A stretch of 64,000 bases of DNA from an uncultured Candidatus Actinomarina sp. GTDB lineage: Bacteria > Actinomycetota > Acidimicrobiia > Actinomarinales > Actinomarinaceae. This document shows positions 3,599-62,690 of this stretch, piece by piece. The notes below the pieces were generated by a model, which was given only the letters and a program-made list of their open reading frames with translations, had not been told where the DNA came from and ran no database searches. The stretch is from NCBI GenBank assembly GCA_902510055.1, contig CABWZY010000003.1, forward strand, positions 15,067 through 79,066, written 5' to 3'. Made by a program: the position numbers and the translations under genes. Numbering within the stretch: position 1 is the first letter of the stretch; every line of letters begins with the position of its first letter.

Positions 3599-4149
3599 AG
3601 ATGTTTATCTCGTGGTTTAGAATTTTTTCTTTGTTTTGCTATTGCTTTATCTGCTGGATGGATTCTTGGTGATAAGTTAATAGGTCCATCTAAAATATTA
3701 TCACCATCATTTTTCAAATTAATTCCTAAGGCTTTTGTTATATTTCCAGGACCGGTTAAATTGTCAGTCTTCATTTTTGTTTTCCTTCTTACTTCTATAT
3801 AATTTTTTCCTAACAATACTTTTCCCGATCTGATTAGTACTGCTTCACAGGAACCCTTTTTAGACGTTAAAAGATATAAACTTTTATTTGATCCATATGA
3901 TTTAAGAATTAATACTGAAGGTGGTCCTAATGGTAAATTTTTTGGTATTTTTCTACTTAATTGAGTAGCTAAAGACATTTGATCTGTATTGGCTCTACCG
4001 AAAGCTTCTGTTTCAGTAATAAGTATCTCAGTAAATTTTCCATTAAAATTTGTTGACAGTCTCATGCCTAATAAATCAACAGCAGCTTTAGAAGATTTTT
4101 GTGATAGAAGTTGATAAACCCTATTATCTAAACCACTAATATCGTTCAT
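3571..4149 (-). CDS. mpg: DNA-3-methyladenine glycosylase (MPG/AAG family)
   Basis: 192 aa. An ETEAF motif (ETEAY in AAG) and a conserved C-terminal block (GPGNITKALGINLK). ATGA overlap with pheT. Synteny with tyrS. Confidence 0.7.
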   Translation of the reverse strand: MNDISGLDNRVYQLLSQKSSKAAVDLLGMRLSTNFNGKFTEILITETEAFGRANTDQMSLATQLSRKIPKNLPLGPPSVLILKSYGSNKSLYLLTSKKGSCEAVLIRSGKVLLGKNYIEVRRKTKMKTDNLTGPGNITKALGINLKNDGDNILDGPINLSPRIHPADKAIAKQRKNSKPRDKHLWRFSLILK

Positions 4150-13730: not shown

Positions 13731-15098
13731 TCAAATATTTCTTATTTTAATTGGTTCAAACTTACTTACATCAGAAAATAAACTCATTATCTTATTGTAA
13801 TTAAGATTATTACTTAAAATTAATCTGATTTCATACTGAAATAAGTCTTTACTAATTTTAGGACCTAATATATAGTCTTTAAAATTATTATTAATGTATT
13901 CATCTTTTGTTATAAAAGAAAAAACTTTAATATTTATATTTGGACCGTAATCAACACGTTCTTGAATCTCTTTATCTGCTAATTTATTAATATTATCAAT
14001 AGACAATAAATCATTAAAATTTTCTTCTTTGGTAGATAGCATTGTTACTTCGATATCATTATTTTTACAAAATTCTAACTGTTTCAATAAAGAAATTAAT
14101 CTTATTGAGTTAAGCGTATTGTTGGTTGATATTTTAGGATTAAATAGTAGAAACATATTATTTTCTTTTTCATCAAAATTTTCAGTAAAATTAAAGTCAG
14201 AAAGTTTATCTTTTACTATATCAGAGAATGTAAACGGTTTTATAAGACTACTATCAAATTTAGTTCGGAATATATTAATACATTCTTCTAAATTATTTCC
14301 ATATAAGTAAGTTACTTTATTATCAATATCTAATTTATTAATATGCTGAATAGAGTTAAAAACATCAAGCGCTGGAAATTTGTTATAAAATATAAAATTT
14401 CCACCAAAAATCATATTCTTATAAACTGCTAATTCTACAATGTTCATAGAATTTAATTTTGGAAGATTGAAAGCGATGTTATTAGTATCATAAAAATGAA
14501 AAATAGTATCATCTTCTAATTCAAAATAGTTGAAATTGTTAGAAAGAATAATTATGTTTTTAACTTTTAACTCTTTAGATAGAATTGTTTCAATCTCATT
14601 TTTACCACCAGTTTTTTGAAAAAAATCAATAATTATATTTTCATTAGTTAATCTATTATTTAATTTCATACATTGTTCTAATGAAGAAACTATAAATATA
14701 TTTTTATGATTATCTGAAACGTTATCTTTCAATGTTTCTAAGTTCATTAGCTTATATTTTTTGTCATTAATTTTATTTTGCTTTATAAATGTATCTAAAT
14801 TAAAAATATTTGAAAGCAACATGCCAATGTTAAGATAGTTTGCAATCGCAAGTGTTTTTATATAATTAAATTGCCTTTTAGATAAGTTATATACCAATTT
14901 CTTAATTTCATTAGTTTTTATATTATTTGATAATTTAACATTAGTTTCGACAACAACTGCATTATATTTTTTATTCCTAAAAATAACTTCTACGATTGAA
15001 CCTATCTCTATTTTATTTGTAAACTTTTTAGGTACTTTATACGTAAATTGAATAAATTTATATGTATTGTTATAGATTAATTCAACATTGATATACAC
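13731..15098 (-). CDS. priA: PriA-like primosomal protein N' with degenerate helicase core
   Basis: 455 aa. N-terminal 50 aa fit the PriA 3'-DNA-binding domain pattern. Lies between coaBC and def as in Actinobacteria. I found no GxGKT Walker A, no DExH motif and no Cys4 zinc finger by eye. Confidence 0.55.
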   Translation of the reverse strand: MYINVELIYNNTYKFIQFTYKVPKKFTNKIEIGSIVEVIFRNKKYNAVVVETNVKLSNNIKTNEIKKLVYNLSKRQFNYIKTLAIANYLNIGMLLSNIFNLDTFIKQNKINDKKYKLMNLETLKDNVSDNHKNIFIVSSLEQCMKLNNRLTNENIIIDFFQKTGGKNEIETILSKELKVKNIIILSNNFNYFELEDDTIFHFYDTNNIAFNLPKLNSMNIVELAVYKNMIFGGNFIFYNKFPALDVFNSIQHINKLDIDNKVTYLYGNNLEECINIFRTKFDSSLIKPFTFSDIVKDKLSDFNFTENFDEKENNMFLLFNPKISTNNTLNSIRLISLLKQLEFCKNNDIEVTMLSTKEENFNDLLSIDNINKLADKEIQERVDYGPNINIKVFSFITKDEYINNNFKDYILGPKISKDLFQYEIRLILSNNLNYNKIMSLFSDVSKFEPIKIRNI

Positions 15099-18179: not shown

Positions 18180-19252
18180 TAAGGAATAACACCTTCTTCT
18201 TTAGCTTTATTTTTCATATTAATAAAATCTGAATAGTTATCTGTAAAAGACATTTTCCCATCTTTTTCTGTTAATAAATAATAAATAAAATCACTTTCTG
18301 GAGCGTTTATTGTAGCTAATATTGACCTCTCTCCAAATCCAGATATTGGTGTTGGAGGTAATCCAGAATACTTATATGTGTTGTAGCTTGAATCTACTTG
18401 CAGGTCAATCAGCAGTACTTGAGATTTTCTTTTTTGTAAGGCATATAAAACAGTTGCATCAATCTGTAATAACATATCATCATAGAGTCTATTTTTAATT
18501 ACTGATGCTACCAAAGGTCTATCTGTCTCTAATTTTGATTCTGCCTCAACTAAGCTAGCTATAGTAAATAGTTCATTGTAACTATCAATCCAATAAGGAA
18601 GTTCATTATTTGCGAAAATTCTATCAACTACAATTTCTAATTCAGATACTAGTACCTGTAATATTTCTTCACCGTTTGCTTCTACATTGATTTCGTAAGT
18701 GTTTGGATATATAAGACCTTCCCAATTCTGCAGTATTTTATAATTTCCTAGGTATACATATTTACTATCAACAAGACCTGATACGAGTGAATTCTCTAAA
18801 GAAGCAACATCGAAACCAGTTTGTGAAGATATAGATGTTAATGTTTCAGAAATCCATAATCCTTCTGGAATTGTTATATTGTATGTTTTTAATGGTGGAC
18901 CTTTAAGCAAAACTGCAGTTAATTCATCGAATTCTAAATTATTTGGAATTTCGTAGTTGCCAGCTCTTAATTTGTCCGACATGTTTTCATTTCTTAAATA
19001 TATTTCATAAGCTAAAGAAGAACTAATTACACCTTTGTTATCTAATATTGATGTTATATCAGTAGCAGAAGATCCTTGAGGTATAGAGATATATACAATT
19101 TTTAGCTCTTTTAAATTTTCTGTACTAACTGAATCTATACTTTTCTCAACCAAAGAAGCCGCGTTACTTGCAAACATTATTGATAATGTTAGAGACAGAC
19201 ATGTAATAACAATATAAAAATATGATCTGTATTTATAATAAAAATTATTCAT
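18179..19252 (-). CDS. mltG: endolytic murein transglycosylase MltG (YceG family)
   Basis: 357 aa. N-terminal TM and a YceG-like domain. mltG-ruvX-alaS synteny. Confidence 0.8.
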   Translation of the reverse strand: MNNFYYKYRSYFYIVITCLSLTLSIMFASNAASLVEKSIDSVSTENLKELKIVYISIPQGSSATDITSILDNKGVISSSLAYEIYLRNENMSDKLRAGNYEIPNNLEFDELTAVLLKGPPLKTYNITIPEGLWISETLTSISSQTGFDVASLENSLVSGLVDSKYVYLGNYKILQNWEGLIYPNTYEINVEANGEEILQVLVSELEIVVDRIFANNELPYWIDSYNELFTIASLVEAESKLETDRPLVASVIKNRLYDDMLLQIDATVLYALQKRKSQVLLIDLQVDSSYNTYKYSGLPPTPISGFGERSILATINAPESDFIYYLLTEKDGKMSFTDNYSDFINMKNKAKEEGVIP

Positions 19253-19625
19253 TAGAACAAAATGTTTCTAGAATCTTAACAGCAGATAAATCGTCCATTC
19301 TTTTATAAGAATCATTTTTAATAACTTTTGATGTTAATCTTTCATCTACTTTCACTACAGGAATATCGAAATTATTTTTAAGTTCATTATCAATAAAATT
19401 ATCAACTAATTTACTCATCCTTGTTTCTTTGTTCATTAATCCTTTAGGGTACCCTATAATTATTTTTGTAATACATTCTTCTTTTGTGATATTTATCAAT
19501 TCAGTAATTAAATTTGTAAAATTGGTATCTATAATTTTATGTGCATAAGGAATATTTAGATTATGTTTTTTTATAGCTAAACCTATAAATCGTTCTCCGA
19601 AATCAATACCTAACAAGTTATTCAA
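19245..19625 (-). CDS. ruvX: Holliday junction resolvase-like RNase YqgF/RuvX
   Basis: 126 aa. LGIDFGERFIGLA N-terminal signature. Confidence 0.85.
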   Translation of the reverse strand: MNNLLGIDFGERFIGLAIKKHNLNIPYAHKIIDTNFTNLITELINITKEECITKIIIGYPKGLMNKETRMSKLVDNFIDNELKNNFDIPVVKVDERLTSKVIKNDSYKRMDDLSAVKILETFCSNE

Positions 19626-25423: not shown

Positions 25424-27589
25424 TTAGTCTCCTTTACCTGGAAATACTCTTTTTGCATCAAACACGTTTTCAATATCTTTAGAATCAGCAATAATAGACT
25501 CTAGTTGTATGTTGTCACTTAACTCAATCTGAAAAAGTAAAGAAACGATTCTTTTACTGTTAGTTACTGATTTAGCAACAAGTATATTTCCACCATTATC
25601 AGAAATAGCGATTGTAGCGTCTCTTAATAGGTATGGTCTGTCTATAGCTTCAATCTCAACCCAGACAATTGAACCAGTGTGTGTATTAAGCCCCCAACTA
25701 ACATCTACAATACGTTCACCTTGAGAGTTATCTATATTAACGTTTAGACAATCAGATCGATGTATTGATATACCATTATTAATTGTTACAAAGCCAAGTA
25801 TGTCATCTCCAGGTACAGGAACACAGCATCTTGCCATTCTTACTTTTATATCGTCATACCCTTCAACTAAAACCAGTTGGGAACTACTGCTAGGTGTGGA
25901 TTCTGGAGATAAAATATCTTCTTCTGCTGAAATTTCTTCTGGAAAAACAAATTTTCTAATTCTATTACCTAAGTTATTAATTTTTAAATTGTTATTTCCC
26001 AAATTTAAATACAAAGTTTCATAATTAGGGTATTTATAGTCAGATAATAAATAATCTAGAATACTTTCTTTATTTGAAAAATTTAATATATCAGTATTTT
26101 CATCAAGCCAAGTATTTAAAAGTTGCTTGCCTCTTTGAATGTCCTCATCCTTCATTTGTTTTTGATGCCATTGCTTTATTTTTGACCTAGCACGTGTTGT
26201 TTTTACAAATCCTAACCAATCCCTGCTAGGTCCTTTATCCATATCTTTAGTTGTTAAGATTTCGACAGTATCACCAGTTTTTAATAAAGTACCTAAATTT
26301 ACTAGTTTTCCATTTATTTTTGCTCCAATAAGTTTTTCTCCTACTTGTGTATGTACTGCAAAAGCAAAATCTACTGGAGAAGCACCAGTAGGTAAAGTTA
26401 TTACATCTCCATTAGGGGTTAAGCAAAATATCTCTTGCTCATATAAGTCAAGTTTCATATGAGATAAAAATTCATTTGGTTCTGGGTATTCTTCAGAGAT
26501 ACTATTCAAATCATTCGTCCATTCTTGTAAATCATTTTTTGGTTTTTCTTTATATTTCCAGTGTGAAGCAACTCCAAATTCTGCTCTGTAATGCATATCA
26601 TGTGTCCTTATTTGAATCTCCATTCTTTGACCTTCTGTTGTTAAAACAGTCGTATGCAAACTTTGATATAGATTAAATTTTGGCATGGATATAAAGTCTT
26701 TAAATCTACCAAGAACAGGTTGAAAGTTAGCATGTATTAACCCAAGTATTGTATAACAATTTTTTACGTCGTCAGTAAGTATACGTATACCGACTAAGTC
26801 ATTTATTTCATTAAATGAAAGTCCACTATTTATAATTTTTTTATAAATTGAATAATTATGTTTAGGTCTACCTACTACTTCAGCTGATAAAGAGTTGTCT
26901 GTTAACAACTTTTGAATAATAGATATAGATTCATTAATGTTTTTATCTCTATTTGGAGCCGATTTAGAAATTAAATTGTTAATTTCTTCATTTTGATTTT
27001 TAAATAAAATATTAAAAGATACATCTTCTAAAGTGTGCTTTATATTTTGCAATCCTAATCTGTGAGCTAATGGAGCATAGACGTAGAGTGTCTCTTGAGC
27101 AATTTTTTCCTTTTTCCATTCATTAAGATAATCAATCGTCTCAATATTGTGTAATCTGTCAGCTAATTTTAAAATTAGTACTCTAATATCCTTCGACATA
27201 GCAATAACCATTTTTCTAATGGCATCAGCTTTAGCCTCTTCTTTTGAATTATAATTTATCTTATCTAATTTGGTTACACCATCAACGATGTCAGCAATTT
27301 CCTTACCGAATTCTTTTTTTAGTTGACTATAGGTAATATCTGTATCTTCAATTAAATCATGTAAAATTGCAGCAACAATCGATTCAATATCCATACTTAA
27401 ATTTGAAAGATATATTGCAACATGTAAAGGATGTGTAATATAAGGCTCACCTGAATGTCTTTTCTGATTATTATGCCCAGCTAAAGCTAAATCAAAAGCT
27501 TTCTTTAATAAAGCTATTTCATCTTTAGAGTAACCATTAATAAGTTTTTCAAATAGATTATCTACCTGTTTAATTGACGTATTACTCAT
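25424..27589 (-). CDS. relA: bifunctional (p)ppGpp synthetase/hydrolase RelA/SpoT
   Basis: 721 aa. HD domain (HDLIEDT), synthetase, TGS and ACT regions. Confidence 0.92.
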   Translation of the reverse strand: MSNTSIKQVDNLFEKLINGYSKDEIALLKKAFDLALAGHNNQKRHSGEPYITHPLHVAIYLSNLSMDIESIVAAILHDLIEDTDITYSQLKKEFGKEIADIVDGVTKLDKINYNSKEEAKADAIRKMVIAMSKDIRVLILKLADRLHNIETIDYLNEWKKEKIAQETLYVYAPLAHRLGLQNIKHTLEDVSFNILFKNQNEEINNLISKSAPNRDKNINESISIIQKLLTDNSLSAEVVGRPKHNYSIYKKIINSGLSFNEINDLVGIRILTDDVKNCYTILGLIHANFQPVLGRFKDFISMPKFNLYQSLHTTVLTTEGQRMEIQIRTHDMHYRAEFGVASHWKYKEKPKNDLQEWTNDLNSISEEYPEPNEFLSHMKLDLYEQEIFCLTPNGDVITLPTGASPVDFAFAVHTQVGEKLIGAKINGKLVNLGTLLKTGDTVEILTTKDMDKGPSRDWLGFVKTTRARSKIKQWHQKQMKDEDIQRGKQLLNTWLDENTDILNFSNKESILDYLLSDYKYPNYETLYLNLGNNNLKINNLGNRIRKFVFPEEISAEEDILSPESTPSSSSQLVLVEGYDDIKVRMARCCVPVPGDDILGFVTINNGISIHRSDCLNVNIDNSQGERIVDVSWGLNTHTGSIVWVEIEAIDRPYLLRDATIAISDNGGNILVAKSVTNSKRIVSLLFQIELSDNIQLESIIADSKDIENVFDAKRVFPGKGD

Positions 27590-27610: not shown

Positions 27611-28516
27611 TTATCTTTTAATTATTTTTGATAAAAATGGGATAGTAACGAAAATTGAGCTATATGTTCCAGACAATATACCGATAAATAAAGGTAAAGC
27701 AAAATCGGTTAAGGCTCCAGATAAACCAAGATAATTACCAATAAATAAAATAGAAGCTATTGGAATAACAGAAGTAATAGATGTATTAATACTCCTCATT
27801 AATACTGCATTGAAAGTATTATTTAAAGTTTCAATATTAATATTATTTTGCTTATTAATTTTCTTAGAATCGTTAAGTTTATCAAAAAGGATAACAGTGT
27901 CGTATAAAGAATAACCTAATATTGTTAGCAAGGCGATTACAGTAGAAGGAGTTATCTCTAAATTTAGTAATAAATATACACTTAAACAAAGTAAGAGATC
28001 GTGTATAAGTGCAATTAAAGCAATTAGTGAAAATTTAAATTCATATCTATAGGTAATTAAAATTACTATAAAACTTAAGAATATAATTAAAGCTCTTAAA
28101 CCTTTTTCCGTAATTTCATCTCCAAATGTTGGTCCAACTCTTTGAAACTCAATATTTGCATCAGAAATATTAAATTTAGTTGATAAGTAAGTTAAAAACT
28201 CTGCTTCTTTATCGGATGTAGATTCTGTTGCTCTAAAAATTATTGAGGTTGAGTTATCAAAAGTTTGATACCTTGAAACTTCTAATATTTTACTATTCAT
28301 TACTTCATTTATATCATCTGTTGAGTATTCAGTTTCAAGTTGATATGTAGTACCGCCTGTAAAATCAACAGAGAGATTCAATTCAAGTATATTTGTAAAA
28401 GTTAAAACTAATACAGTTGAAAATAATATTATTTCAACAATGAATATTTTATAAAATATGTTACCGATTTTATAAAAATCTATTTTTGTATCACCTAGAA
28501 ATAGTTTTTTAAACAT
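27611..28516 (-). CDS. secF: protein translocase subunit SecF
   Basis: 301 aa polytopic membrane protein. secD-secF order. Confidence 0.85.
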   Translation of the reverse strand: MFKKLFLGDTKIDFYKIGNIFYKIFIVEIILFSTVLVLTFTNILELNLSVDFTGGTTYQLETEYSTDDINEVMNSKILEVSRYQTFDNSTSIIFRATESTSDKEAEFLTYLSTKFNISDANIEFQRVGPTFGDEITEKGLRALIIFLSFIVILITYRYEFKFSLIALIALIHDLLLCLSVYLLLNLEITPSTVIALLTILGYSLYDTVILFDKLNDSKKINKQNNINIETLNNTFNAVLMRSINTSITSVIPIASILFIGNYLGLSGALTDFALPLFIGILSGTYSSIFVTIPFLSKIIKR

Positions 28517-29954
28517 CTTGTAAATCCTTATTTGTTATTGGAAAACACATTCTTGGGTTCTTACTAAAATTAGAGATTAGAGGTACAGAGTTTCTTGTAT
28601 AAATTCTTGTAAATAGTAAATCAAATGTAGTTGCTAAGCCTAGTGCTAAGGCAAACCCTCTAATTGGTCCAATAGCAAGAATGTATAATAGAAAAGCTGC
28701 TGATATAGAAACAAAATCTGCAATCAATATAGTTTTCCATGCATCTTGAACTGCTTTGTTAGCCGCAAATTCAAACGACCTACCTATTTTAAGTTCATCT
28801 TTAAACTTTTCAAATGTAACAATATATGAATCTGCTGCTAAACCAATCGATACTATAGCTCCAGCTATACCAGCAAGAGTTAATGTATAGCCTTGGAATT
28901 TACCAAGTAAAGAAATAACAGAATAAAATAAAAAACCAAATGAAGAAAGACCAAAAATAGCAATTAAGCCAAGAAGTCTATAATAAAGAAGTAACAAAGT
29001 TGAAACTATAATTAATCCAAATACACCAGCTTGAAGACCTAAATTTAATGTATTTTCCCCTAAGGTAGCAGATACCTTTTGTATTGAGGATCTTTCAAAA
29101 GCAACTGGTAAGGCACCATATCTTAATATGACTGCTAAATTATTTGCAGACTCTCCTGCATCAGCATTACCCATAGATATAGCTGCTGTTCCACCTGTTA
29201 TGCCAACATTAGGATCTACGTCAAAAGCTATACCGGGCGCTGAGACAACCTCTCCATCAAGAACAATAGCAATTTTTCTTTGGTCACCTGATTTAGAAGC
29301 AAGTTCTTTAGTAAGGTTAGTAAATTTACTTTCTGCTTCAGAATTTAATTCTAAAGACACTATCCATTCATTATCTGGATAAACAGCAATTGCATCTGAA
29401 ATATCACTACCTGTCAAAGCAGCTGGTCCAAGTTCGTAGATAACTGGAAATCCACTATTAACGCCTAATAGATAAGAAATTGTTGAAGGGTTATCATCAA
29501 GGCTTACCCCAACTAAATCATCTACACCAGCAGGTACAGTTTTAATCGGATTATCAGGATCATCTGGGTTAGGACTATATTCAAATGCTGGTGAGTAACC
29601 AGTATTTAATGAAGAATCTAATACGGGTCTAAATGTTAATAAACCAGTAGTACCAAGTGCTTCAATTGCTTTGTTTTGATCAGTAACTCCTGGTAACTGT
29701 ACTAATACTGACCTATCACCACTTATTGAAATTTCAGGTTCCTGTACATCACCAAAAGCCTCTATACGTGTTCTCATAATCTCTACAGCTTTTATTAGAA
29801 GTTCTTCTTCTGTGCCTTCAGGAGCAGTTAGTATTACAGATATTCCTCCTTGTAGGTCTAGACCTAATTTTGGTTTTATATCGAAAGCTATTGTGTAGTA
29901 AAACAAACCAAATGCAACAAGTGGTAAAAGAAATATTTTAATTATATTTTTCAT
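28509..29954 (-). CDS. secD: protein translocase subunit SecD
   Basis: 481 aa. Large periplasmic loop plus six C-terminal TM helices. Confidence 0.9.
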   Translation of the reverse strand: MKNIIKIFLLPLVAFGLFYYTIAFDIKPKLGLDLQGGISVILTAPEGTEEELLIKAVEIMRTRIEAFGDVQEPEISISGDRSVLVQLPGVTDQNKAIEALGTTGLLTFRPVLDSSLNTGYSPAFEYSPNPDDPDNPIKTVPAGVDDLVGVSLDDNPSTISYLLGVNSGFPVIYELGPAALTGSDISDAIAVYPDNEWIVSLELNSEAESKFTNLTKELASKSGDQRKIAIVLDGEVVSAPGIAFDVDPNVGITGGTAAISMGNADAGESANNLAVILRYGALPVAFERSSIQKVSATLGENTLNLGLQAGVFGLIIVSTLLLLYYRLLGLIAIFGLSSFGFLFYSVISLLGKFQGYTLTLAGIAGAIVSIGLAADSYIVTFEKFKDELKIGRSFEFAANKAVQDAWKTILIADFVSISAAFLLYILAIGPIRGFALALGLATTFDLLFTRIYTRNSVPLISNFSKNPRMCFPITNKDLQDV

Positions 29955-30202
29955 GGTTTTTCTTGAATGTGGCTTTTATTAATTATGATTTCACCTTTTT
30001 TTAATACTAGTGTTAACTGTTCTTTATTTATTGTTGTTACTCGTCCATGGATTCCAGATTCAGTTACAACATTGTCACCTATTTGTATGTTGTCTATAAA
30101 TTCTCGATGTTTTTTGTTTCGTCTTCTTTGAGGAATATATAATAATGCATAAAAAAATATGAAAATCGTAATTAAAGGCAGCAATGTTATTAAATCATTC
30201 AT
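29951..30202 (-). CDS. yajC: preprotein translocase subunit YajC
   Basis: 83 aa, single TM. Upstream of secD. Confidence 0.8.
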   Translation of the reverse strand: MNDLITLLPLITIFIFFYALLYIPQRRRNKKHREFIDNIQIGDNVVTESGIHGRVTTINKEQLTLVLKKGEIIINKSHIQEKP

Positions 30203-31280
30203 GTTGATATCTCTTTTTAAATTGATTAAAACTTGATTCTAATATACTTCTCCTAGCTTCATCAAGGATAATCTCAGTTTGAATTAAGTTGTGTACTGTT
30301 AAATAAAGCCATGCAGATGTATTTTCATTATGTATTAAATGTCTTAAATAAGCTTTTGAAAAATTCTTGCATGTAAAACATGGGCAGTCTTTATTAATTG
30401 GATTAGGATCATTTTCATATCTTTTATTTTTAATGTTTATATAATCATTTCCATCAACTAACTTTCCATGCCTAGCTAGTCTTGCGGGCCAAACACAGTC
30501 AAATATATCAATACCTTCTTCTATTAAATCCACGATTCCATGAAGGTCACCCAATCCCATTACATATCTAGGTTTATTTTCAGGTAACAACTTAGTAGTA
30601 AAGTTAACAATATCTTTTCTTTCAGATCTTGTCTCCCCTATTGCCAGTCCACCTATTGCATAACCGTCATAATTTTGTTCAATCATATATTTTGCTGATA
30701 ACTCTCTTAAATCTTTATGTAAACCACCTTGCAATATGCCAAACAAAGATTGATTCCTATTACCATGTTTTTCTTTTGATTTTAATCCCCATGCTCTTGT
30801 AAGATTTATTGCAGCTAATTGTTTTTCTTTAGGGTCGTTTATATCGATCAGACAGTCAAATATCATTGCTATATCGCTTCCAAGTTTATTTTGAGTTTCT
30901 ATAGACATCTCTGGAGTCATCTCAAATGATGAACCATCATATACATTTTTAAAAATAACTCCATCATCGTTTATTTTTGTAGGTATCGACCAAGCTTGAA
31001 AACCACCAGAATCTGTAAGAATAACTTTGTCCCAATTCATAAATTTATGAATTCCACCTAAATCTTTAATTATGTCTGAACCAGGTCTTAAATGTAAATG
31101 ATATGTATTTGCTAACAATACATCTGTATTATTAAGAAACATATGAGGTGTTGACTTTATTGCGCCTCTTGTTGCAACCGGCATAAAGCTAGGTGTTTTA
31201 ATTATCTTATTATTAACAATAATCTCTGTTGCTCTAGCGTTTCCATCTTTTTCAATTATTTTTAATTTTAAGTTACTCAT
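30195..31280 (-). CDS. tgt: queuine tRNA-ribosyltransferase
   Basis: 361 aa. Zinc site CPCFTC...H, DSGGFQ motif. Confidence 0.9.
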   Translation of the reverse strand: MSNLKLKIIEKDGNARATEIIVNNKIIKTPSFMPVATRGAIKSTPHMFLNNTDVLLANTYHLHLRPGSDIIKDLGGIHKFMNWDKVILTDSGGFQAWSIPTKINDDGVIFKNVYDGSSFEMTPEMSIETQNKLGSDIAMIFDCLIDINDPKEKQLAAINLTRAWGLKSKEKHGNRNQSLFGILQGGLHKDLRELSAKYMIEQNYDGYAIGGLAIGETRSERKDIVNFTTKLLPENKPRYVMGLGDLHGIVDLIEEGIDIFDCVWPARLARHGKLVDGNDYINIKNKRYENDPNPINKDCPCFTCKNFSKAYLRHLIHNENTSAWLYLTVHNLIQTEIILDEARRSILESSFNQFKKRYQHE

Positions 31281-32275
31281 TTTATTTCAAATAATACAGC
31301 ATCGCCAAAACTTAAAAATTTAAGTTTAGATCTCTGAGCATATTTATATAATTCTTTCCATTTTTTTCCATATATTGTTAATACAATTGACAAAAGAGTG
31401 CTTCTAGGTGCATGAAAATTAGTTATTAACAAATCTACAACTTTAAATTTATAACCTGGTTTTATAAATAAACTTGTTTGTCCTTTGTAAACATTAGTGT
31501 TAGCTACTGTTTCTAATGTTCTCAATACAGTTGTACCAACTGATATAATCTTATAACCTTTATTTTTAAGTTTTAATAATTCTGAAAATTCTTTTTTTGA
31601 TACTGAGTAATTTTCTTCATGAATTTTATAATTTTCTAAATATTCTGTATCTATTGATTTAAAAGTCCCTAAACCAATATCTAAATTTATGTATTTTACG
31701 ATTACATCATTATTTTCTAGATGTGCAATCAACGGTTTATCAAAATGTAAGCCTGCTGTAGATGCAGCAACGGAAAATCCTTTATCCTCAAATTCGGTTT
31801 TATAATATTTATATTTTGATTCTTTGTCATTTATGTATGGAGGTAAAGGAGTTTTACCGAATTTTGAAATAATCAAATCAATACTTAAGTTTGATTCAAT
31901 TTCAAAACTAGAGTTATTTTTTTTAATTATTTTAAAATTTAATAATTCTGTTTCAATATAACTTCCAACGGTCTTTGTGCCCCTAAATTTAAGTAAACAC
32001 TCACAGATGTTTTCAGATATTTTTCTTAAAATAAATATTTCAACTTTTCCTTTAGTGTTTAATTTATTCGTTTTTATTCTTACATCTTGTAACTTACTTT
32101 TATTAAGAACTATTACAGATTTATTAGGCAACACAGTCAATAAATGTTTAAATTGAATTATTTTTTTTGTATTAGCTATTAACAATTTTGAATTTTCAGC
32201 TTTTTTATACCTGTCTTGGGCTATGTCATTTTTATTTAGTTTGTAGAATAATTCTTCAGTTAAAGTTTTTTTCAA
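31277..32275 (-). CDS. queA: S-adenosylmethionine:tRNA ribosyltransferase-isomerase
   Basis: 332 aa. queA-tgt-yajC-secDF order. VGTTVLRTLE block. Confidence 0.75.
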   Translation of the reverse strand: MKKTLTEELFYKLNKNDIAQDRYKKAENSKLLIANTKKIIQFKHLLTVLPNKSVIVLNKSKLQDVRIKTNKLNTKGKVEIFILRKISENICECLLKFRGTKTVGSYIETELLNFKIIKKNNSSFEIESNLSIDLIISKFGKTPLPPYINDKESKYKYYKTEFEDKGFSVAASTAGLHFDKPLIAHLENNDVIVKYINLDIGLGTFKSIDTEYLENYKIHEENYSVSKKEFSELLKLKNKGYKIISVGTTVLRTLETVANTNVYKGQTSLFIKPGYKFKVVDLLITNFHAPRSTLLSIVLTIYGKKWKELYKYAQRSKLKFLSFGDAVLFEIK

Positions 32276-32629
32276 TTATTTATTTAAAAGTTTAATAAAT
32301 AGTTCGTAAGACATAGAAATAACTTCTGGCATTCCGTCGTTTGTTCTTCTTTTGTTATCGCCTTTTCTTTTTAATTTTTTCCAAAATAAAACAGTGTTGA
32401 TATTACCAGATTTTTCGATTGCTTTATCTAAAGATTGATGAAGGTTTAAATTTTGTCTTGATTTAGCTTCTATAAAATACTCTTCATCTTTTGCAAATAA
32501 TTGTATATCACCTAAATCGTTCGAACCACCCTCAGCAAATCTTTGAGATCGTAAATTTACATTTTCATTTAAACGATTTACTATATTCGTTTCGTAATTT
32601 GTACCTTGTTTTTTTGCTTTGTTAACCAT
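32276..32629 (-). CDS. Hjc-like PD-(D/E)xK nuclease (putative archaeal-type Holliday junction resolvase) sitting where ruvC normally lies
   Basis: 117 aa. K7xG..E13...RS28..GGS36..D41-x12-E54-A-K56 lines up with Pyrococcus Hjc E9/D33/E46/K48, including the GSxxxD and IExK blocks. Lies immediately downstream of yebC. Confidence 0.6.
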   Translation of the reverse strand: MVNKAKKQGTNYETNIVNRLNENVNLRSQRFAEGGSNDLGDIQLFAKDEEYFIEAKSRQNLNLHQSLDKAIEKSGNINTVLFWKKLKRKGDNKRRTNDGMPEVISMSYELFIKLLNK

Positions 32630-32648
32630 TTTATAATTTTAACAATTT

Positions 32649-33392
32649 TTAAATTGTTAATGCAGTATCTAAAAGTTTATCGTCAATATCGAAATTTGAA
32701 TATACATTTTGTACATCGTCTAGTTCTTCTAAAGCCTCAATAAGCTTGCTAACATCTTTGAACATCTTTATGTCCAACATAACCGAACTATCAGGAATAT
32801 AAGCTACTTCAGAATTTGTAGAAATAAATTTATTTGTTTTAAATAATTCATCTATTTTTTTAAAATCGTTTGGTTCAAATTCTAAATTTAATGAATCATT
32901 TACTTCATTAATATCTAAACAGTTATTTTCTATTGCTAAATTTATCAAGTTATCATTAACTTCTTCAAATTGAAAAATAGCTTTACGGTTAAAGAGGTAA
33001 TTTACACTACCAGGGGTTCCTGTGCTTCCATTGTTTCTATTAAAAGCAGCTTTAACATCTGATGAAGTACGGTTTTTATTATCTGTTAAACATTCAACTA
33101 GTATGGCAACACCATGAGGTCCATATCCTTCATAGTGTACTTCTTGAAATTCTATTCCGTCACTATCACCGCTTAGTCTTTTTAATGCTCTTTCAATATT
33201 TTCATTAGGTACTGAATTTGATTTTGCTTTTGAAATTGCTTGATATAAAGAAGCATTATTAACAGGATCAGCCCCACCATTTCGCGCCGCTACCTCTATT
33301 CCTCTTATTAATTTTGCAAATAATTTACCTCTTTTGACATCATTGGCACCTTTTTTTCTTTTTATAGTTGACCATTTAGAGTGACCCGACAT
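32649..33392 (-). CDS. yebC: YebC/PmpR family transcriptional regulator
   Basis: 247 aa. MSGHSKW N-terminus typical of the family. Confidence 0.9.
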   Translation of the reverse strand: MSGHSKWSTIKRKKGANDVKRGKLFAKLIRGIEVAARNGGADPVNNASLYQAISKAKSNSVPNENIERALKRLSGDSDGIEFQEVHYEGYGPHGVAILVECLTDNKNRTSSDVKAAFNRNNGSTGTPGSVNYLFNRKAIFQFEEVNDNLINLAIENNCLDINEVNDSLNLEFEPNDFKKIDELFKTNKFISTNSEVAYIPDSSVMLDIKMFKDVSKLIEALEELDDVQNVYSNFDIDDKLLDTALTI

Positions 33393-33960
33393 TAGTACCT
33401 TCTTCTATAAAACTGGTTAGCCAATTTAAATAATTTTCATCATTAGTTAACTCAGGATGAAAAGTAAAACCAGTTATATTTTCTTGTCTTATACCGACTA
33501 ATTCTTCTTCAAGATATGCTATTTTGTGAATATTTTTCCCCGTTGAAATAATTCTTGGTGCTCTTATAAAACAATACATTTGTGTATTTTTATTAAAAGT
33601 TACTAAGCCTTCAAATGAATCATTCTGTCTTCCGTAAGCGTTTCTTTCGACTACACAATTTAATAAATTCAAAGAAACTTTGCCATCTAAAACATCTTTT
33701 GATAATAAAATTAAACCTGCGCAAGTACCTAAAGTTGGTATACCTTCGTTGATTTTATCTTGTAATTTTTTAAATAATTCTTCGTTTTCTTGGATTTTAA
33801 TCATTGAAGATGATTCTCCACCAGGAAGGATTAAAGAATCAATATTTTCTATGTCACTTGTATTCTTAATAAAAATGTATTCTTTACTAATTAATTCTAA
33901 GCTCTTAGAATGTTCACGAAAGTTACCTTGCAAAGCAAGTATTCCAGTAGGCATTACCAA
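33376..33960 (-). CDS. pdxT: pyridoxal 5'-phosphate synthase glutaminase subunit
   Basis: 194 aa. GTCAG catalytic Cys motif. Confidence 0.9.
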
Positions 33961-34880
33961 CCTCTTTTAGCTAATTTCTCCGCTTCATCTAAGTCATCTA
34001 TGTTTATACCAACCATTGGTTCTCCTAGATTTTTAGAAACTTCAACTATTTTTGATGGATCATCATAGTTAGTTGTTGCTATAACAATTGCTTCAGCTCT
34101 TTCAGCAGGATCTCCACTTTTAAATATTCCAGACCCTACGAAAACTCCATCACAGCCTAATTGCATCATAAGAGCTGCATCTGCTGGTGTAGCTATTCCT
34201 CCTGCAGCAAAGTTAACTACAGGTAATTTTCCATTTTTCTTAATTTCTTTCAGTACTTCATATGGTGCTGAATACTCTTTTGCTAAGGACATTAATTGGT
34301 TCTTATCAGAAGAGATAATTCTGTTTATTCCATGAGTCATACTTCTCATATGTTTTACAGCTTCTATAATATTCCCTGTTCCGGCTTCTCCTTTAGTTCT
34401 TATCATCGCTGCGCCTTCACCAATTCTCCTACATGCTTCTCCAATATTTGTAGCTCCGTTAACAAATGGTGTTTTTATATCATGTTTATCAATATGATTT
34501 TTATCATCAGCAGGTGTTAGCACTTCACTTTCATCAATAAAATCTATACCTAATTCCTCTAACATTTGAGCTTCGACAAAATGCCCTATTCTTGATTTAG
34601 CCATTACTGGTATAGACACAGAAGACATTATTTGCTGGATCATTTCTACTGATGACATTCTTGCCACACCGCCTTCGGCACGTATATCAGCAGGAACTCT
34701 TTCTAATGCCATAACTGCTGCAGCACCTGCTTTTTCTGCAGTTAAAGCTTGTTCTGCGTTAACAACATCCATTATCACGCCACCTTTTAGCATCTCTGCT
34801 AAACCTTTTTTAATTTTAAATGTTGATTGTACTTTCATAGACTTAATATTAACTAGTAATGCGTATAGACAGAAATCCAT
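33954..34880 (-). CDS. pdxS: pyridoxal 5'-phosphate synthase lyase subunit
   Basis: 308 aa. Highly conserved PdxS/SNZ sequence. Confidence 0.95.
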
Positions 34881-43476: not shown

Positions 43477-45426
43477 TTAGCCAAAAGAAGGATTTTTTGT
43501 ATTTGGAACAAGGGAAATCCACACTTTTCCTTTTGGTACATACAATATATTGTCATTATTATCTACTATGTGGAATGGATCAAGATTTGAACCTCTTTTC
43601 CACTTTGCGTCAAGTAACTTACCTTTATGTAAAATAATTGCTCTACCTTCACCAACTGTTTTAACTGAAGGAAGCTGAAGGGGGTGGATATAAGGTTCAC
43701 AAAATAATGCAATAACAGTTGTTGCTGTAATTTGGCCTTGAGTTCCATTTTGGTTTATCCAATAGTGGATATTATTATCAGATGAATTTTTATATGCATC
43801 ATAATAGGTTCTAACATATGATGATCCATTCCAAGACCATGTTGTTGATGTATATGTTGAAAATGTTAATTTAAGAAAGGAATTGTAAGACCAACTATCT
43901 AAAGATGGATCACCCCATGGAAATAAAGGTTGTGGATTATTATATTTTTTATAACCTTTATTGATTGCAAGCTGTTTTAATTTCGATGTATCTGCATATA
44001 AATTATGTGGTGCATTTCTTGATGATATGCGAAAGTACTCTGGTCGTCTATCTGTTATTACTGGAACACCCATATCAATAATCTCAGGTATTAATCCTCC
44101 TGTAGCTCCGCTTGCAATTAATACTCCACCAACAGGTCTTAAAACAGTTGGATCTGTTGGCCTAGCTGATCTAATTGGTCCGTGATAACTTGTATCACTT
44201 TGGTAAAATATATTTATAAATCTAGTCATTCCTCCTTCAACCAAAACTTCAAAAACTGCATCTGCAGCTTGAGGTCCAGATTGAGGCCTGGCTCTAACAT
44301 TATTATCATTTTTAATGCCTATTACAATAGAGTTATTTGATCCAATTGGCATTGGAAGTCCGTTGACAGGTGAGTTATAACCCTCTGTATAATTTTGTGT
44401 AGGAACTGCGCCTAAGGAAGTATAAGTTTTTTCTTTTGTTAACGTCCAATTTTGATTCAAATATGCATCTAACTCTGCTTGTGAGTTTACTTGAGCAACA
44501 TTTCCATATCTATAAACGAATACAGGATAAAAACATGGATCAGGTACCCAGACATCATCATCGTTAACATACCCAACTAAACAGTCTAAATTAGGATTGT
44601 AGTTTATTAAATCAACAGTCAAACTTACATTTAAATTTACTGTTTCTTCTATATTTGTAACTTCTTCTGTAATAATATTTTCTTCATTAACTTCTACTGA
44701 TATAAAAGATTCTTTACCTTTATCTAAAGCTTGCTTTGTTTTAGGACCAAATATTCCATCAACCTCTAATCCTGCTTTTCTTTGAAATTCTTTAAGTGAA
44801 ACTTTTGTTTGGAATCCAAATACACCATCAATATCTCCTGTATATATTTCTAAATCTTTTAATTTTTTTTGTATATATTTTGCTTCATCAGAAATTTCAT
44901 AAAGATTTATATCTACAGTTTGTTGTCCTCCTATGTTTATATATGAACTTTCACCTTTCTTTAAAGCTTCTTTTGTCATAGGTCCTAATATTCCATCTTC
45001 AACTAACCCACTTCTTTTTTGAAATTCTTTAATCGCTAACTTTGTATATGTACCAATTACACCATCAATGTCACCTTGATAAATGAACAATTTTTTCAAT
45101 TCTCTCTGTGCATCTTCTATATTATTTACTACAACTGTTGGGATAGTTGTAGTGATTGTTGATTCTGTTGGGATAGTTGTAGTGATTGTTGATTCTGTTG
45201 GGATAGTTGTAGTGATTGTTGATTCTCTTGGGATAGTTGTAGTGATTGTTGATTCTGTTGGGATAGTTGTAGTGATTGTTGATTCTGTTGGGATAGTTGT
45301 AGTAGCTATATTTTGGCTACTTTCTATTGTGTTATTTCTGTTATTAAGGAATAAAATTAATGAAATCAAAACTAAAAAAATCAAAAAAGGGTTATTATTT
45401 TTGATTTTGTTTAAATATTTAAACAT
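43477..45426 (-). CDS. secreted/anchored protein: N-terminal TM, Thr-rich tandem-repeat linker, two peptidoglycan-binding (PG_binding_1-like) repeats, C-terminal DUF3048 (YerB-like) domain
   Basis: 649 aa. TTTIPTESTI repeated six times. GDIDGV.G..T...I..FQ PG-binding motifs. ARPQSG...VEGGMTRF...GPIRSARPTDP block shared with the neighbouring paralog. Confidence 0.75.
   Translation of the reverse strand: MFKYLNKIKNNNPFLIFLVLISLILFLNNRNNTIESSQNIATTTIPTESTITTTIPTESTITTTIPRESTITTTIPTESTITTTIPTESTITTTIPTVVVNNIEDAQRELKKLFIYQGDIDGVIGTYTKLAIKEFQKRSGLVEDGILGPMTKEALKKGESSYINIGGQQTVDINLYEISDEAKYIQKKLKDLEIYTGDIDGVFGFQTKVSLKEFQRKAGLEVDGIFGPKTKQALDKGKESFISVEVNEENIITEEVTNIEETVNLNVSLTVDLINYNPNLDCLVGYVNDDDVWVPDPCFYPVFVYRYGNVAQVNSQAELDAYLNQNWTLTKEKTYTSLGAVPTQNYTEGYNSPVNGLPMPIGSNNSIVIGIKNDNNVRARPQSGPQAADAVFEVLVEGGMTRFINIFYQSDTSYHGPIRSARPTDPTVLRPVGGVLIASGATGGLIPEIIDMGVPVITDRRPEYFRISSRNAPHNLYADTSKLKQLAINKGYKKYNNPQPLFPWGDPSLDSWSYNSFLKLTFSTYTSTTWSWNGSSYVRTYYDAYKNSSDNNIHYWINQNGTQGQITATTVIALFCEPYIHPLQLPSVKTVGEGRAIILHKGKLLDAKWKRGSNLDPFHIVDNNDNILYVPKGKVWISLVPNTKNPSFG
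45135..45307. repeat. about 5.8 perfect copies of a 30-bp tandem repeat (ctgttgggatagttgtagtgattgttgatt; one copy has a G>C change)
   Basis: Direct head-to-tail repeats inside the CDS, encoding (ESTITTTIPT)n on the minus strand. Confidence 0.95.
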
Positions 45427-45471: not shown

Positions 45472-46584
45472 TTAACTACTTGACCAATCTATTTTACCAT
45501 TATCTAAAGGTAATATATGTAACCACTGTTTACTTGGAGGTACATAAATAGCATTCTGCTCTTCATCGTAAAATTCAAATGGTTCACTTATATCATTTCG
45601 TCTCCAAGTTCCTTCAATATAATTACCATTGTTAAATATATACACAGGACCAACACCAACAGTTAAAACACTAGGTAAGGTTGTTGCTTCATCTATATAA
45701 ATTGGACCTTGGATAACAACAATTGTTTCTGTTTGTAAAATTTGAGTAGTTTCATCTCTGGTTATTATATTGTGAGCAACTGCTTCTTTTGAAGACGTAT
45801 ATCCGTCAATAATAAATCTTGAATACTTTGTACCATCTAATTTCCATATTATTGTTGTAAAATCACTATATTCAATTGTTACTCTGTTAGAACCTGAATT
45901 CCAGTTATTTTGATTTTTACCAAAACTATAAAGTGGTCCAGGTGGTGGATTGAAAGGAAATCCTTTCTCATCAACTAATTCTCTGATTAATTCTGTATCG
46001 CCATATAAATTATGTGGAGCACTTCTAGAAGTTATTCTAAACATAGCTGGAGCAGGTTGTTCTTCTAAAACAGCAACTCCTAATTCTCTTATTTGAGGTA
46101 CTAATCCTGGTGTTGCTCCAGACACTACTAAGATTCCACCGTATGGCCTTACTAAAGTTGGATCTGTTGGTCTTGCTGATCTAATTGGTCCAAGGTAATC
46201 ACTTGTTTTATCATAGAAAAAAGCTAAAAATCTTGTCATTCCACCTTCTACTAATATTTCATGTACTGAATCAGCATCTTCTAAACCTGACTGAGGTCTA
46301 GCGTTTAGATTGTTATCTATTTTGAAAGCTAATATTCTTCTTGGTCTTTTTAACCATAATTCAGGAGGAAGTTCTAACCCTGTAAAGGGAGACATCTTTT
46401 CTTCATCAAATACATATAATTCCGCAATTGAGGTAGTAGTAGTATCACTTACTTCTTTTTCTATAGTTGTAACCGTAGTTGTTACTTTATCTGTTATATC
46501 AGAATTTTGGGATTCATCATTATTATCTGCTGATGAACAAGATAGAATAATAAAAGCAAGTAAAAGAACTTTTAAATTTTTCAT
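45472..46584 (-). CDS. DUF3048 (YerB-like) lipoprotein, paralog of the upstream gene
   Basis: 370 aa. Lipobox ILSC. Thr-rich linker. The same ARPQSG/VEGGMTRF/GPIRSARPTDP/SRSAPHNLY blocks. Confidence 0.75.
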   Translation of the reverse strand: MKNLKVLLLAFIILSCSSADNNDESQNSDITDKVTTTVTTIEKEVSDTTTTSIAELYVFDEEKMSPFTGLELPPELWLKRPRRILAFKIDNNLNARPQSGLEDADSVHEILVEGGMTRFLAFFYDKTSDYLGPIRSARPTDPTLVRPYGGILVVSGATPGLVPQIRELGVAVLEEQPAPAMFRITSRSAPHNLYGDTELIRELVDEKGFPFNPPPGPLYSFGKNQNNWNSGSNRVTIEYSDFTTIIWKLDGTKYSRFIIDGYTSSKEAVAHNIITRDETTQILQTETIVVIQGPIYIDEATTLPSVLTVGVGPVYIFNNGNYIEGTWRRNDISEPFEFYDEEQNAIYVPPSKQWLHILPLDNGKIDWSSS

Positions 46585-59423: not shown

Positions 59424-59627
59424 TTATCTTTCAACAGTATTTATAGATTTATTAAATCTATTTAGTATTCTTTCACAAATTTCAATAACTAAATTTAAAA
59501 TCCATAACCCTATATACATCGCTATAAATAAATTTAATAACTTAAGAAGTAAATAAACTATACCTAAATAGATAAATATCCATGTAATTGTAAATTTAAA
59601 AGAATAAATTGGAGATTGTTTATTCAA
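59424..59627 (-). CDS. small membrane protein (67 aa, 2 TM), start overlaps the SRAP stop
   Basis: 4-nt overlap with the upstream SRAP gene. Hydrophobic helices. Confidence 0.35.
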   Translation of the reverse strand: MNKQSPIYSFKFTITWIFIYLGIVYLLLKLLNLFIAMYIGLWILNLVIEICERILNRFNKSINTVER

Positions 59628-60268
59628 AATGGTAACTCTGAATATTCTTTATATAAATTTTCATTATTATTCTTTGGATTATTAACAGCAACATCTACTC
59701 TATGGTAGTTAATATTGTTTATTTCTAAATTTAGTTGCTCTTGTAGATATTTAATATCAGTGTCAAAATTATTCCAATAACTAAGTAATTCTTCATTTAA
59801 TACAACTGGCATTCTTTCATGTATATTTTTTAATTCAGATATAGAATTTTTTGTCAAAATGCATGTTTCTATAGATTCATCACTTCTTTTGTTATAAATG
59901 CCAGCAACTTTTATTACTTTATTATTTTCTTTAAAAAAAGCATACGGTATTTTTGATTCACCTTCTTTTTTCCATTCATACCAACCAGACATTAATATTA
60001 TGCATCTTCTTTTTTCAAATGGAGTTTTAAAGGTCTTTTTCTCTAAAACAGTTTCCAATCTTGCATTAATTAAAGGTTTAGAGTCCTTCATTTCTTTTAA
60101 CCAAGTAGGATAAAAACCCCACTTTGCATTAACTATTTGATTGTCTATTACAATAGCAACTTGAGACGAAGGGACAATATTATAATTTTTAAATTCATTA
60201 ATAATTTCATTGTTAGTTAAATATGATAATTCCTCATCTGAAATAAAATTGTAATATCGTCCACACAT
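59624..60268 (-). CDS. SOS response-associated peptidase (SRAP/YedK family, abasic-site processing protein)
   Basis: True start is at MCGRY (catalytic Cys2). The upstream in-frame extension in the ORF track overlaps the tRNA genes and is spurious. About 214 aa. Confidence 0.8.
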   Translation of the reverse strand: MCGRYYNFISDEELSYLTNNEIINEFKNYNIVPSSQVAIVIDNQIVNAKWGFYPTWLKEMKDSKPLINARLETVLEKKTFKTPFEKRRCIILMSGWYEWKKEGESKIPYAFFKENNKVIKVAGIYNKRSDESIETCILTKNSISELKNIHERMPVVLNEELLSYWNNFDTDIKYLQEQLNLEINNINYHRVDVAVNNPKNNNENLYKEYSELPF

Positions 60269-60282
60269 AATTATAAGCCTTG

Positions 60283-60353
60283 AGGCGACGACGAGAATCG
60301 AACTCGTGTAAACGGTTTTGCAGACCGCTGCGTAGCCACTCCGCCACGTCGCC
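60283..60353 (-). tRNA. tRNA-Cys (GCA)
   Basis: Hand fold: acceptor GGCGACG/CGUCGCC, anticodon stem GCGGU/ACCGU with loop CUGCAAA, T arm ACGAG/CUCGU with UUCGAUU, discriminator U73 and G13:A22 as in tRNA-Cys. Confidence 0.85.
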
Positions 60354-60357
60354 AATG

Positions 60358-60430
60358 AGCGGAAGACGGGATTCGAACCCGCGGCCTCAACCTTGGCAAG
60401 GTTGCGCTCTACCAGCTGAGCTACTTCCGC
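60358..60430 (-). tRNA. tRNA-Gly (GCC)
   Basis: Hand fold: acceptor GCGGAAG/CUUCCGC, D arm GCUC/GAGC, anticodon stem CAACC/GGUUG with loop UUGCCAA, T loop UUCGAAU, discriminator U. Confidence 0.85.
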
Positions 60431-60476
60431 ACTAATTTTATATTACATGTTATACATTAATATTTGAAAGTAAGAT

Positions 60477-60914
60477 TTATCCTGTTGATCCGAATCCTTT
60501 ATCTGATCTATCAGTATTTTTTAATTTTTTTACTAAATTAAAAGACACGTTTTCTACATTAATAATTACTAACTGTGCGAATCTTTCTCCCTTTTCTAAG
60601 GTATATTCTTTATTTGAGTGATTGATTAACGGAATTATTAACTCTCCTGTATATCCTGGATCAACTAATCCAGGTGAATTTATTGAAGTAATACTATGTT
60701 TAGAAGCTAAACCTGATCTAGGTAATATAAACCCTCCCATATTAGGAGGAAGTTCAATTTTTACACCTGTATGTATTCGTGTAATTTTTTTTGTTGAAAG
60801 TGTATATTCCTGTATCGAAAATATATCGTAGCCTATATCTAATTCGTGTTGTTTTTCTGGTATTTTTGCATTTTTATTAAGGAGTACAATATTTATGTTA
60901 ATATTTTTATTCAA
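60477..60914 (-). CDS. dut: dUTP diphosphatase
   Basis: 145 aa. dUTPase motifs (PRSGLASK, GLVDPGYTGE). Confidence 0.85.
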   Translation of the reverse strand: MNKNININIVLLNKNAKIPEKQHELDIGYDIFSIQEYTLSTKKITRIHTGVKIELPPNMGGFILPRSGLASKHSITSINSPGLVDPGYTGELIIPLINHSNKEYTLEKGERFAQLVIINVENVSFNLVKKLKNTDRSDKGFGSTG

Positions 60915-62420: not shown

Positions 62421-62466
62421 ATATAGTGTATTATAGTTTTTAAGAAAAGTTGATTCAAATAGTTCT

Positions 62467-62658: not shown

Positions 62659-62664
62659 TTTTTA

Positions 62665-62680
62665 TCGAACATTTGTACTA
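62665..62680. promoter_or_regulatory. LexA operator-like site TCGAAC-ATTT-GTACTA (Cheo-box-like GAAC-N4-GTAC)
   Basis: Lies 11 nt upstream of the lexA ATG. Matches the actinobacterial and Gram-positive SOS box consensus TCGAAC-N4-GTTCGA at 10 of 12 positions. Confidence 0.4.
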
Positions 62681-62690
62681 TAATTAACAT

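Follow-up and report, generated by a model that had tools for sequence, protein, structure and literature searches.

Which enzyme resolves Holliday junctions in a bacterium whose yebC gene is not followed by ruvC, ruvA, and ruvB? This question is raised by a 64,000-nucleotide (nt) stretch of the contig CABWZY010000003.1 (positions 15,067 to 79,066; assembly GCA_902510055.1) from an uncultured Candidatus Actinomarina sp., here called the window. Candidatus Actinomarinales are abundant marine bacteria and among the smallest free-living cells. RuvAB is near-universal among bacteria, yebC-ruvCAB is a textbook conserved neighborhood, and ruvC-ruvA-ruvB is the common bacterial content between yebC and queA. 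In the window, this place is occupied by a single open reading frame (ORF) encoding 117 amino acids (aa). This ORF117 (32276..32629, minus strand, ATG start) begins 19 nt after the yebC stop codon, and its own stop codon directly abuts the start of queA. A first-pass annotation of the DNA had located the ORF correctly and had read its product as an Hjc-like PD-(D/E)xK nuclease of archaeal or phage type that displaced RuvC. The reading favored here, to which we assign a probability of roughly 0.6, is that ORF117 encodes a phage resolvase of the phrog_244 family, which was captured once and, from the former ruvCAB slot, still supplies the cell with its Holliday-junction resolvase.

The absence of ruv genes was shown over the whole window and, in 46 related genomes, over about 20 kb each. 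With E. coli RuvA, RuvB, and RuvC as tblastn queries, nothing beyond noise was found in the 64-kb window at E ≤ 10, and the orthologous locus L001, from a 1.01-Mb contig of GCA_038147085.1, was likewise without a tblastn match to the three proteins, the YebC control being strong. One genome per Genome Taxonomy Database (GTDB) species was then scanned with the YebC protein of the window as the query, which recovered 47 Actinomarinales loci, each with flanks of up to 10 kb; 46 of these extend past yebC, and the counts given here use those 46. Besides Actinomarinales, the scan returned a few unrelated bacteria, with no other Acidimicrobiia among the matches. The order pdxT, yebC, 117-aa gene, queA, and tgt was present in all 46 genomes, and no similarity to RuvA, RuvB, or RuvC was detected within 10 kb on either side of yebC in any of them. 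A gammaproteobacterial locus from the same scan (L048) showed the order yebC-ruvC-ruvA-ruvB and served as the positive control. The earlier claim of a post-yebC slot devoid of ruvCAB thus holds for the window and for all 46 loci. From general knowledge of bacterial gene order, the ancestral arrangement was probably yebC-ruvC-ruvA-ruvB-queA-tgt-yajC-secDF; if this is correct, about 2.2 kb of ruvCAB are now represented by 354 bp.

The gene itself is conserved as well. It is intact (117 to 119 aa) in 44 of the 46 genomes, the spacer separating it from yebC measures 16 to 22 nt, mostly 19, in 45 of them (52 nt in L046), and in 41 the gap between the gene and queA is 0 or −1 nt. Both short copies come from long-read assemblies, one of which has many neighboring genes split as well. 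In the 1.01-Mb long-read assembly JAYQSV010000001.1 (L001/L046), queA, secD, secF, relA, and the resolvase gene (108 aa) are split or shortened, which fits uncorrected insertion and deletion errors rather than real pseudogenes. Across the copies of the order, 47 residues are invariant. Pairwise Nei-Gojobori ratios of nonsynonymous to synonymous substitutions (dN/dS) amount to 0.09 for the 117-aa gene, 0.18 for yebC, and 0.33 for queA; the gene is under purifying selection, and its constraint is stronger than that of yebC or queA.

The residues expected of a PD-(D/E)xK nuclease can be assigned in the ORF117 protein. The putative catalytic residues are E13 (codon at 32591-32593), D41 (32507-32509), E54 (32468-32470), and K56 (32462-32464, all on the minus strand), and R30 and G34-G35-S36 are further motif residues. 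The first-pass annotation had quoted these positions correctly, including the twelve residues between D41 and E54, which give a D-to-E spacing of 13, identical to that in Pyrococcus Hjc. E13, D41, E54, and K56 are invariant in a 57-sequence alignment (A4) whose members share 34 to 82% identity with the ORF117 protein; in this alignment, the C-terminal third shows its own invariant residues, W83, K84, R95, and G99, with no counterpart identified in Hjc. A search of the PDB with the single ORF117 sequence yielded only noise. Two profiles were therefore compared with the PDB, one built from the homologues in Actinomarinales and the other, broader, from 73 family members. With both, the top ranks were taken by Hjc proteins alone (Sulfolobus solfataricus, S. 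tokodaii, Archaeoglobus, and Thermus phage 15-6); the E values of 0.013 to 0.16 are each marginal alone, but the alignments match, position by position, the catalytic residues known from experiment. Specifically, E13/D41/E54/K56 pair with E12/D42/E55/K57 of S. solfataricus Hjc, and R30...G34-G35-S36 pairs with R28...S32-G33-S34 of the same enzyme. Catalysis by Hjc of Pyrococcus furiosus requires E9, D33, E46, and K48 as well as R25 (PMC10956419). The motif is more than chance, because it is invariant in 57 divergent sequences and because profile and fold searches independently pick Hjc.

A structure model calculated with AlphaFold2 from the 57-sequence alignment, which includes phage-type relatives, reached a predicted local distance difference test (pLDDT) value of 82.8 and a predicted template modeling (pTM) score of 0.75. 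A first model based on 30 close homologues was discarded, as its pLDDT was 65.6 and Foldseek gave meaningless PII and kinase matches. The AlphaFold2 topology is α1, β1, β2, β3, α2, β4, β5, α3, with an α-β-β-β-α-β core. E13 is positioned in α1 (helix 6 to 21), D41 at the start of β2 (strand 42 to 46), and E54-x-K56 in β3 (strand 49 to 57), a placement that is the canonical PD-(D/E)xK layout in the model. When Foldseek was run with this model, 21 of the top 22 matches were Hjc or Hje, the best one being 1gef (E = 3.6e-4, template modeling [TM] score of about 0.48), and the similarity spans about 85 to 90 residues. The loop formed by residues 84 to 99 (WKKLKRKGDNKRRTNDG) is basic and of low confidence, and it may be an element that contacts DNA. 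In the model, the core fold and the catalytic register are common to the ORF117 protein and archaeal Hjc/Hje (PF01870; PDB 1gef, 1hh1, 2wcw, and 1ob8). Structural alignments, in contrast, give only about 15 to 24% identity, the family is bacterial and phage-borne, and the C-terminal third with its own invariant residues differs. The predicted fold and active site are Hjc-like, yet the protein lies outside Pfam Hjc by hidden Markov model (HMM) criteria. The first-pass designation as an Hjc-like nuclease is therefore borne out for the catalytic register and the predicted fold, and fails for membership in PF01870.

The profile search that identified a family for the protein was that against PHROGs, which has no curated cutoff: phrog_244 was matched at E = 1.4e-11, with residues 1 to 116 on profile positions 4 to 111, and 72 of the 73 family members match it as well (best E = 2.7e-18). 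Its label is "RusA-like Holliday junction resolvase"; the PHROGs wording "RusA-like" makes no claim about structure. The ORF117 protein could be assigned neither to RusA, as judged by PF05866 with the RusA fold and Asp triad, nor to RecU, a family that the first-pass annotation had suggested for comparison, as judged by an HMM match to PF03838 and the RecU-specific stalk. NCBIfam contains no family that matches the protein. Some homologues are named Holliday junction resolvase in IMG, and in NCBI they are hypothetical proteins. Because the ORF117 protein belongs to phrog_244, its source is a bacteriophage lineage and not archaea; of the archaeal or phage-type origin suggested earlier, only the second half stands.

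The family is small, since only 257 clusters (50% identity) were returned at E ≤ 1e-3 when 1.84 billion representative proteins were searched exhaustively with a profile. A second homologue search (alignment A1) recovered mostly the same Actinomarinales proteins again. Members outside Actinomarinales are about 115 to 140 aa long and, wherever the context was examined, reside on contigs of phage type. The closest of them (P0134; 53% identity), on a contig with a guanine-plus-cytosine (G+C) content of 61%, is encoded downstream of ERF recombinase, SSB, and WhiB genes. Another (P0278) lies on a phage-like contig of 40 kb with a PDDEXK_1 exonuclease, an AAA_25 protein, HNH, VanY, and a 1629-aa gene, and a third (P0146) matches "Holliday junction resolvase" genes in 15 Arthrobacter and Microbacterium phage records. 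The ORF117 protein itself had no tblastn match among the INPHARED phage records; cultured actinophages were reached via a high-G+C family member. A scan of IMG/VR revealed 101 viral contigs with relatives, 80 of which were kept (L064-L143). The G+C content is 32 to 38% in 76 of these 80, and many are about 30 to 45 kb long. They may represent phages of low-G+C marine Actinobacteria such as Ca. Actinomarina, to which marine phages of about 35% G+C were assigned earlier (PMC3861242). On one IMG/VR contig, a phage exonuclease gene (phrog_284) is located about 2.6 kb upstream of the resolvase-relative gene. The phage genes of phrog_244 and ORF117 form a true sequence family, with the same length and the same invariant motifs. 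The phage genes are located in recombination and replication modules, whereas ORF117 is chromosomal, has host-like G+C and no phage genes around it, and is fixed order-wide in the ruvCAB slot.

Some family members depart from this plan. P0241, P0245, P0267, and P0275 each match the profile in three stretches and appear circularly permuted, with an N-terminal K-x-QGT...E...GD part, then a WKRL...G segment, and the E-x-K strand at the C-terminus. P0169, P0192, and P0219 (246 to 261 aa) have about 115 extra N-terminal residues before the nuclease domain, a segment that resembles sigma-70 region 4 or a helix-turn-helix, and a weak Sigma70_r4_2 match is also seen on the phage contig L003, in the gene directly upstream of the resolvase-family gene. 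This suggests that a sigma-70 region 4-like segment and the nuclease recur in fusion or linkage.

How the gene reached its present position can be traced from its relationships. In neighbor-joining trees, the Actinomarinales sequences were monophyletic in 199 of 200 bootstraps, and the most frequent sister of this clade was the ERF/SSB/WhiB-linked P0134 (96 of 200). The G+C content of ORF117 is 27%, which is host-like when compared with the 29% of the window, and no phage genes flank it, either among the window ORFs or in the L001 locus. The single clade, the host-like G+C, the low dN/dS, the fixed position, and the lack of flanking phage genes therefore indicate one ancient phage-gene capture, followed by service as a tightly constrained core gene.

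We propose that the protein is a small Mg2+-dependent PD-(D/E)xK endonuclease with an Hjc-type structure. Its origin would be a phrog_244-family Holliday-junction resolvase of a bacteriophage, acquired a single time by the ancestor of the sampled Candidatus Actinomarinales, and the gene would by now be fully host-adapted in base composition between yebC and queA. Hjc, RecU, RusA, and T7 endonuclease I serve as models for the proposed mechanism, in which the four-way junction would be bound by a homodimer. Within each subunit, E13, D41, and E54 would hold the metal ion and K56 would complete the active site, and two symmetric nicks would produce two ligatable duplexes, both steps again being modeled on the known enzymes. 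RuvAB would not be needed for this; branch migration, if required, would come from another translocase, for example RecG or RadA. Phage resolvases act independently of RuvAB. As E. coli RusA rescues ruvA, ruvB, and ruvC mutants if RecG is present (PMC10956419), this RuvAB-independent precedent means that a single small gene could stand in for the whole ruv operon. Junction specificity and dimerization, as well as the replacement of RuvC and a genome-wide loss of RuvAB, are inferred. Somewhat tentatively, we consider that Actinomarinales may have dropped the entire RuvABC system and rely on one actinophage-derived 117-residue resolvase, its gene having been either inserted or retained exactly where the lost operon had been, with no RuvAB motor.

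Known systems resemble parts of this proposal. RecU of Firmicutes and Mollicutes is a PD-(D/E)xK resolvase replacing RuvC and represents the classic non-orthologous displacement of RuvC. The fold and catalytic residues of RusA are, by established knowledge, unrelated to those of the ORF117 protein, and in E. coli its gene is a silent accessory gene rather than a fixed core gene in the ruv slot. RusA (E. coli prophage DLP12; chromosome of Aquifex aeolicus) is nevertheless the closest functional precedent for the proposed mechanism: this small resolvase of phage origin can take the place of RuvABC in a cell and, relying on RecG, needs no RuvAB (PMC10956419). Hjc_15-6 of the Thermus phage Tth15-6 (PDB 7bgs) belongs to a different sequence family that matches Pfam Hjc/COG1591; its motif reads E-SD-EVK, that of the ORF117 protein E-GD-EAK, and capture by a host chromosome is not known for it.

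Several observations weigh against the favored reading. The ORF117 protein has no match to Pfam Hjc (PF01870), the profile proposed for the comparison by the first-pass annotation, even at E ≤ 10, and among its relatives only 2 of 73 match weakly (best E = 0.0044). The match to PF24608 (PDDEXK_15, phage putative PDDEXK endonuclease) amounts to 21.2 bits (E = 2.9e-4), is below the gathering threshold of 27 bits, and covers profile positions 1 to 74 of 164, i.e., the N-terminal half only; 11 of the 73 relatives match this profile weakly. The TM scores to Hjc are modest (0.45 to 0.5) and the C-terminal third differs, PD-(D/E)xK cores are common to enzymes with many substrates, the "Holliday junction resolvase" annotations in actinophages are homology-based, and no biochemical study of the ORF117 family was found in the literature. 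On the genomic side, ruvAB or ruvC might be encoded elsewhere, beyond the 10 kb examined on either side. In addition, the window retains, as had been noted before, a second putative junction nuclease gene, ruvX/yqgF (19245..19625, minus strand; PF03652, E = 1.5e-22), located between alaS (PF01411 AlaS) and mltG/yceG (PF02618 YceG), and RuvX could itself be the junction nuclease. Since RuvX is retained, and since complementary activities of RuvX and RuvC on branched DNA are reported for mycobacteria (PMC11466669), RuvX may share junction work with the ORF117 protein.

The uncertainty about substrate is the substance of one alternative, in which the PD-(D/E)xK nuclease serves some other purpose in the cell and its post-yebC position is incidental. 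The protein might, for example, cut flaps, forks, or other DNA that is branched or damaged, act as a toxin or in a restriction-like manner, or have an RNA-directed function. Weak Mrr_cat or Vsr matches in a few relatives would agree with this, as would the C-terminal third, where W83-K84, R95, and G99 are invariant. The best sequence and structure matches, however, are consistently junction resolvases, the phage relatives adjoin recombinase, exonuclease, and SSB genes, and the gene occupies the very position at which a resolvase would be anticipated. A defense function finds no counterpart in the PADLOC profiles, which matched neither the ORF117 protein nor any of the 73 family members, and no methylase or antitoxin partner is adjacent among the window ORFs. 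Taken together, we regard a role other than junction resolution as unlikely. That the gene is a decaying prophage remnant or a functionless chance ORF might be supposed from its short, AT-rich sequence, from homologues that are hypothetical in NCBI, and from truncated copies in 2 of the 46 genomes. This explanation is effectively refuted by the conservation data, i.e., by the 44 intact copies, the dN/dS of 0.09, and the 47 residues invariant across the order; moreover, no other phage genes lie nearby, and one truncated copy stems from a long-read assembly in which neighboring genes are also split.

A resolvase of phage origin could also be a mere accessory, with RuvAB and perhaps RuvC encoded elsewhere in the genome, so that only the operon position has changed. 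There are parallels in E. coli, where RusA exists beside RuvABC, and in Firmicutes, where RecU-type resolvases are established to coexist with RuvAB, and the genomes were examined only within 10 kb around the locus. Against this, ruvA and ruvB have gone from the slot along with ruvC in 46 of 46 genomes, and the constraint on the gene is tighter than that on its housekeeping neighbors, which would be unusual in a spare enzyme. Redundancy is also made less likely by the highly streamlined genomes of about 1 Mb (PMC7771536). An accessory role is hence rated as quite improbable. The displacement of RuvC by a captured phage resolvase, as favored here, is supported insofar as the gene is a conserved core gene at the post-yebC position in all 46 genomes, in a slot without ruvCAB.

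The gene lies in a long run of genes on the minus strand of the window, in the order thrS ... pdxS, pdxT, yebC, ORF117, queA, tgt, yajC, secD, secF, relA. The identities of the neighbors rest on the window ORFs, precomputed Pfam labels of L001, and tblastn with YebC. The yebC gene (TACO1/YebC family; 32649..33392) matches E. coli YebC over its full length with 38% identity (E = 4e-56), and its L001 orthologue is labeled PF20772/PF01709. It is separated from the ORF117 start by an AT-rich spacer (32630..32648, minus strand) and preceded by pdxT (33376-33960) and pdxS (33954-34880), whose L001 orthologues are labeled PF01174 SNO and PF01680 SOR_SNZ, respectively. Immediately downstream of ORF117 follow queA (31277-32275) and tgt (30195-31280; L001 orthologues PF02547 and PF01702), and then yajC (29951-30202), secD (28509-29954), secF (27611-28516), and relA/spoT (25424-27589), all on the minus strand. 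The locus of L001 comprises thrS, genes for a CDP-alcohol phosphatidyltransferase, an acyltransferase, and a glycosyltransferase, pdxS, pdxT, yebC, the small ORF, queA, tgt, yajC, secD, secF, relA, a gene for a metallo-β-lactamase (MBL)-fold protein, hisS, and aspS. A scan for promoters and terminators around the ORF117 locus gave nothing above shuffled expectation. No LexA box (GAAC-N4-GTTC) was found near yebC or ORF117; the sole match in the window, inside ribH, is no more than expected by chance.

Further genes of DNA metabolism are encoded in the window. A DNA-damage cluster at 59624-63278 consists of SRAP/YedK (59624-60355, minus strand), dUTPase (60477-60914, minus), NrdR (61980-62420, minus), and LexA (62691-63278, plus); an SOS regulator is thus present. 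A methylpurine-DNA glycosylase gene (3571-4149, minus; PF02245, E = 3.4e-22) between pheT and tyrS is another DNA-repair gene kept by this very small genome. Between coaBC and def, a 455-aa ORF (13731-15098, minus) matches the PriA 3′ DNA-binding domain only (PF17764, E = 4.3e-7), with no helicase domain at E ≤ 1e-5, and may be a shortened or degenerate PriA; a shortened PriA would bear on the handling of stalled forks in a genome possibly without RuvAB. Two adjacent DUF3048 paralogues are encoded at 43477-45426 and 45472-46584 (both minus), the larger one with two additional peptidoglycan-binding domains.

The displacement of RuvC by unrelated resolvases is already known from RecU, RusA, and, in archaea, Hjc, and archaeal-type Hjc enzymes have been described in phages (PMC8805305). 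What appears to be new is a phage-origin Hjc-fold family that has been fixed in the core genome of an entire bacterial order, exactly at the ruvCAB position, all three ruv genes apparently having been lost from behind yebC. The main Actinomarinales genome paper with its supplements, the 2013 description, the sister-order paper, and the deep-sea Actinobacteriota paper were found to mention neither ruv genes nor resolvases nor DNA repair in Actinomarinales. Interest would grow if a genome-wide loss of RuvAB were confirmed.

If the favored reading is true, the ORF117 protein would be a fourth bacterial solution to junction resolution beside RuvC, RecU, and RusA, and its gene a clean example of the domestication of a phage gene into a core function. 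With a single biochemical study, the genes of the host and hundreds of genes in phages would be annotated at once. Population genomics indicates that homologous recombination keeps Actinomarina species cohesive (PMC7771536), and the enzyme that finishes the exchanges is therefore of direct interest. Actinomarinales would possess a minimal bacterial junction-processing system in which a phage gene has become an essential-type core gene, and they would show how far genome streamlining can simplify the late steps of homologous recombination.
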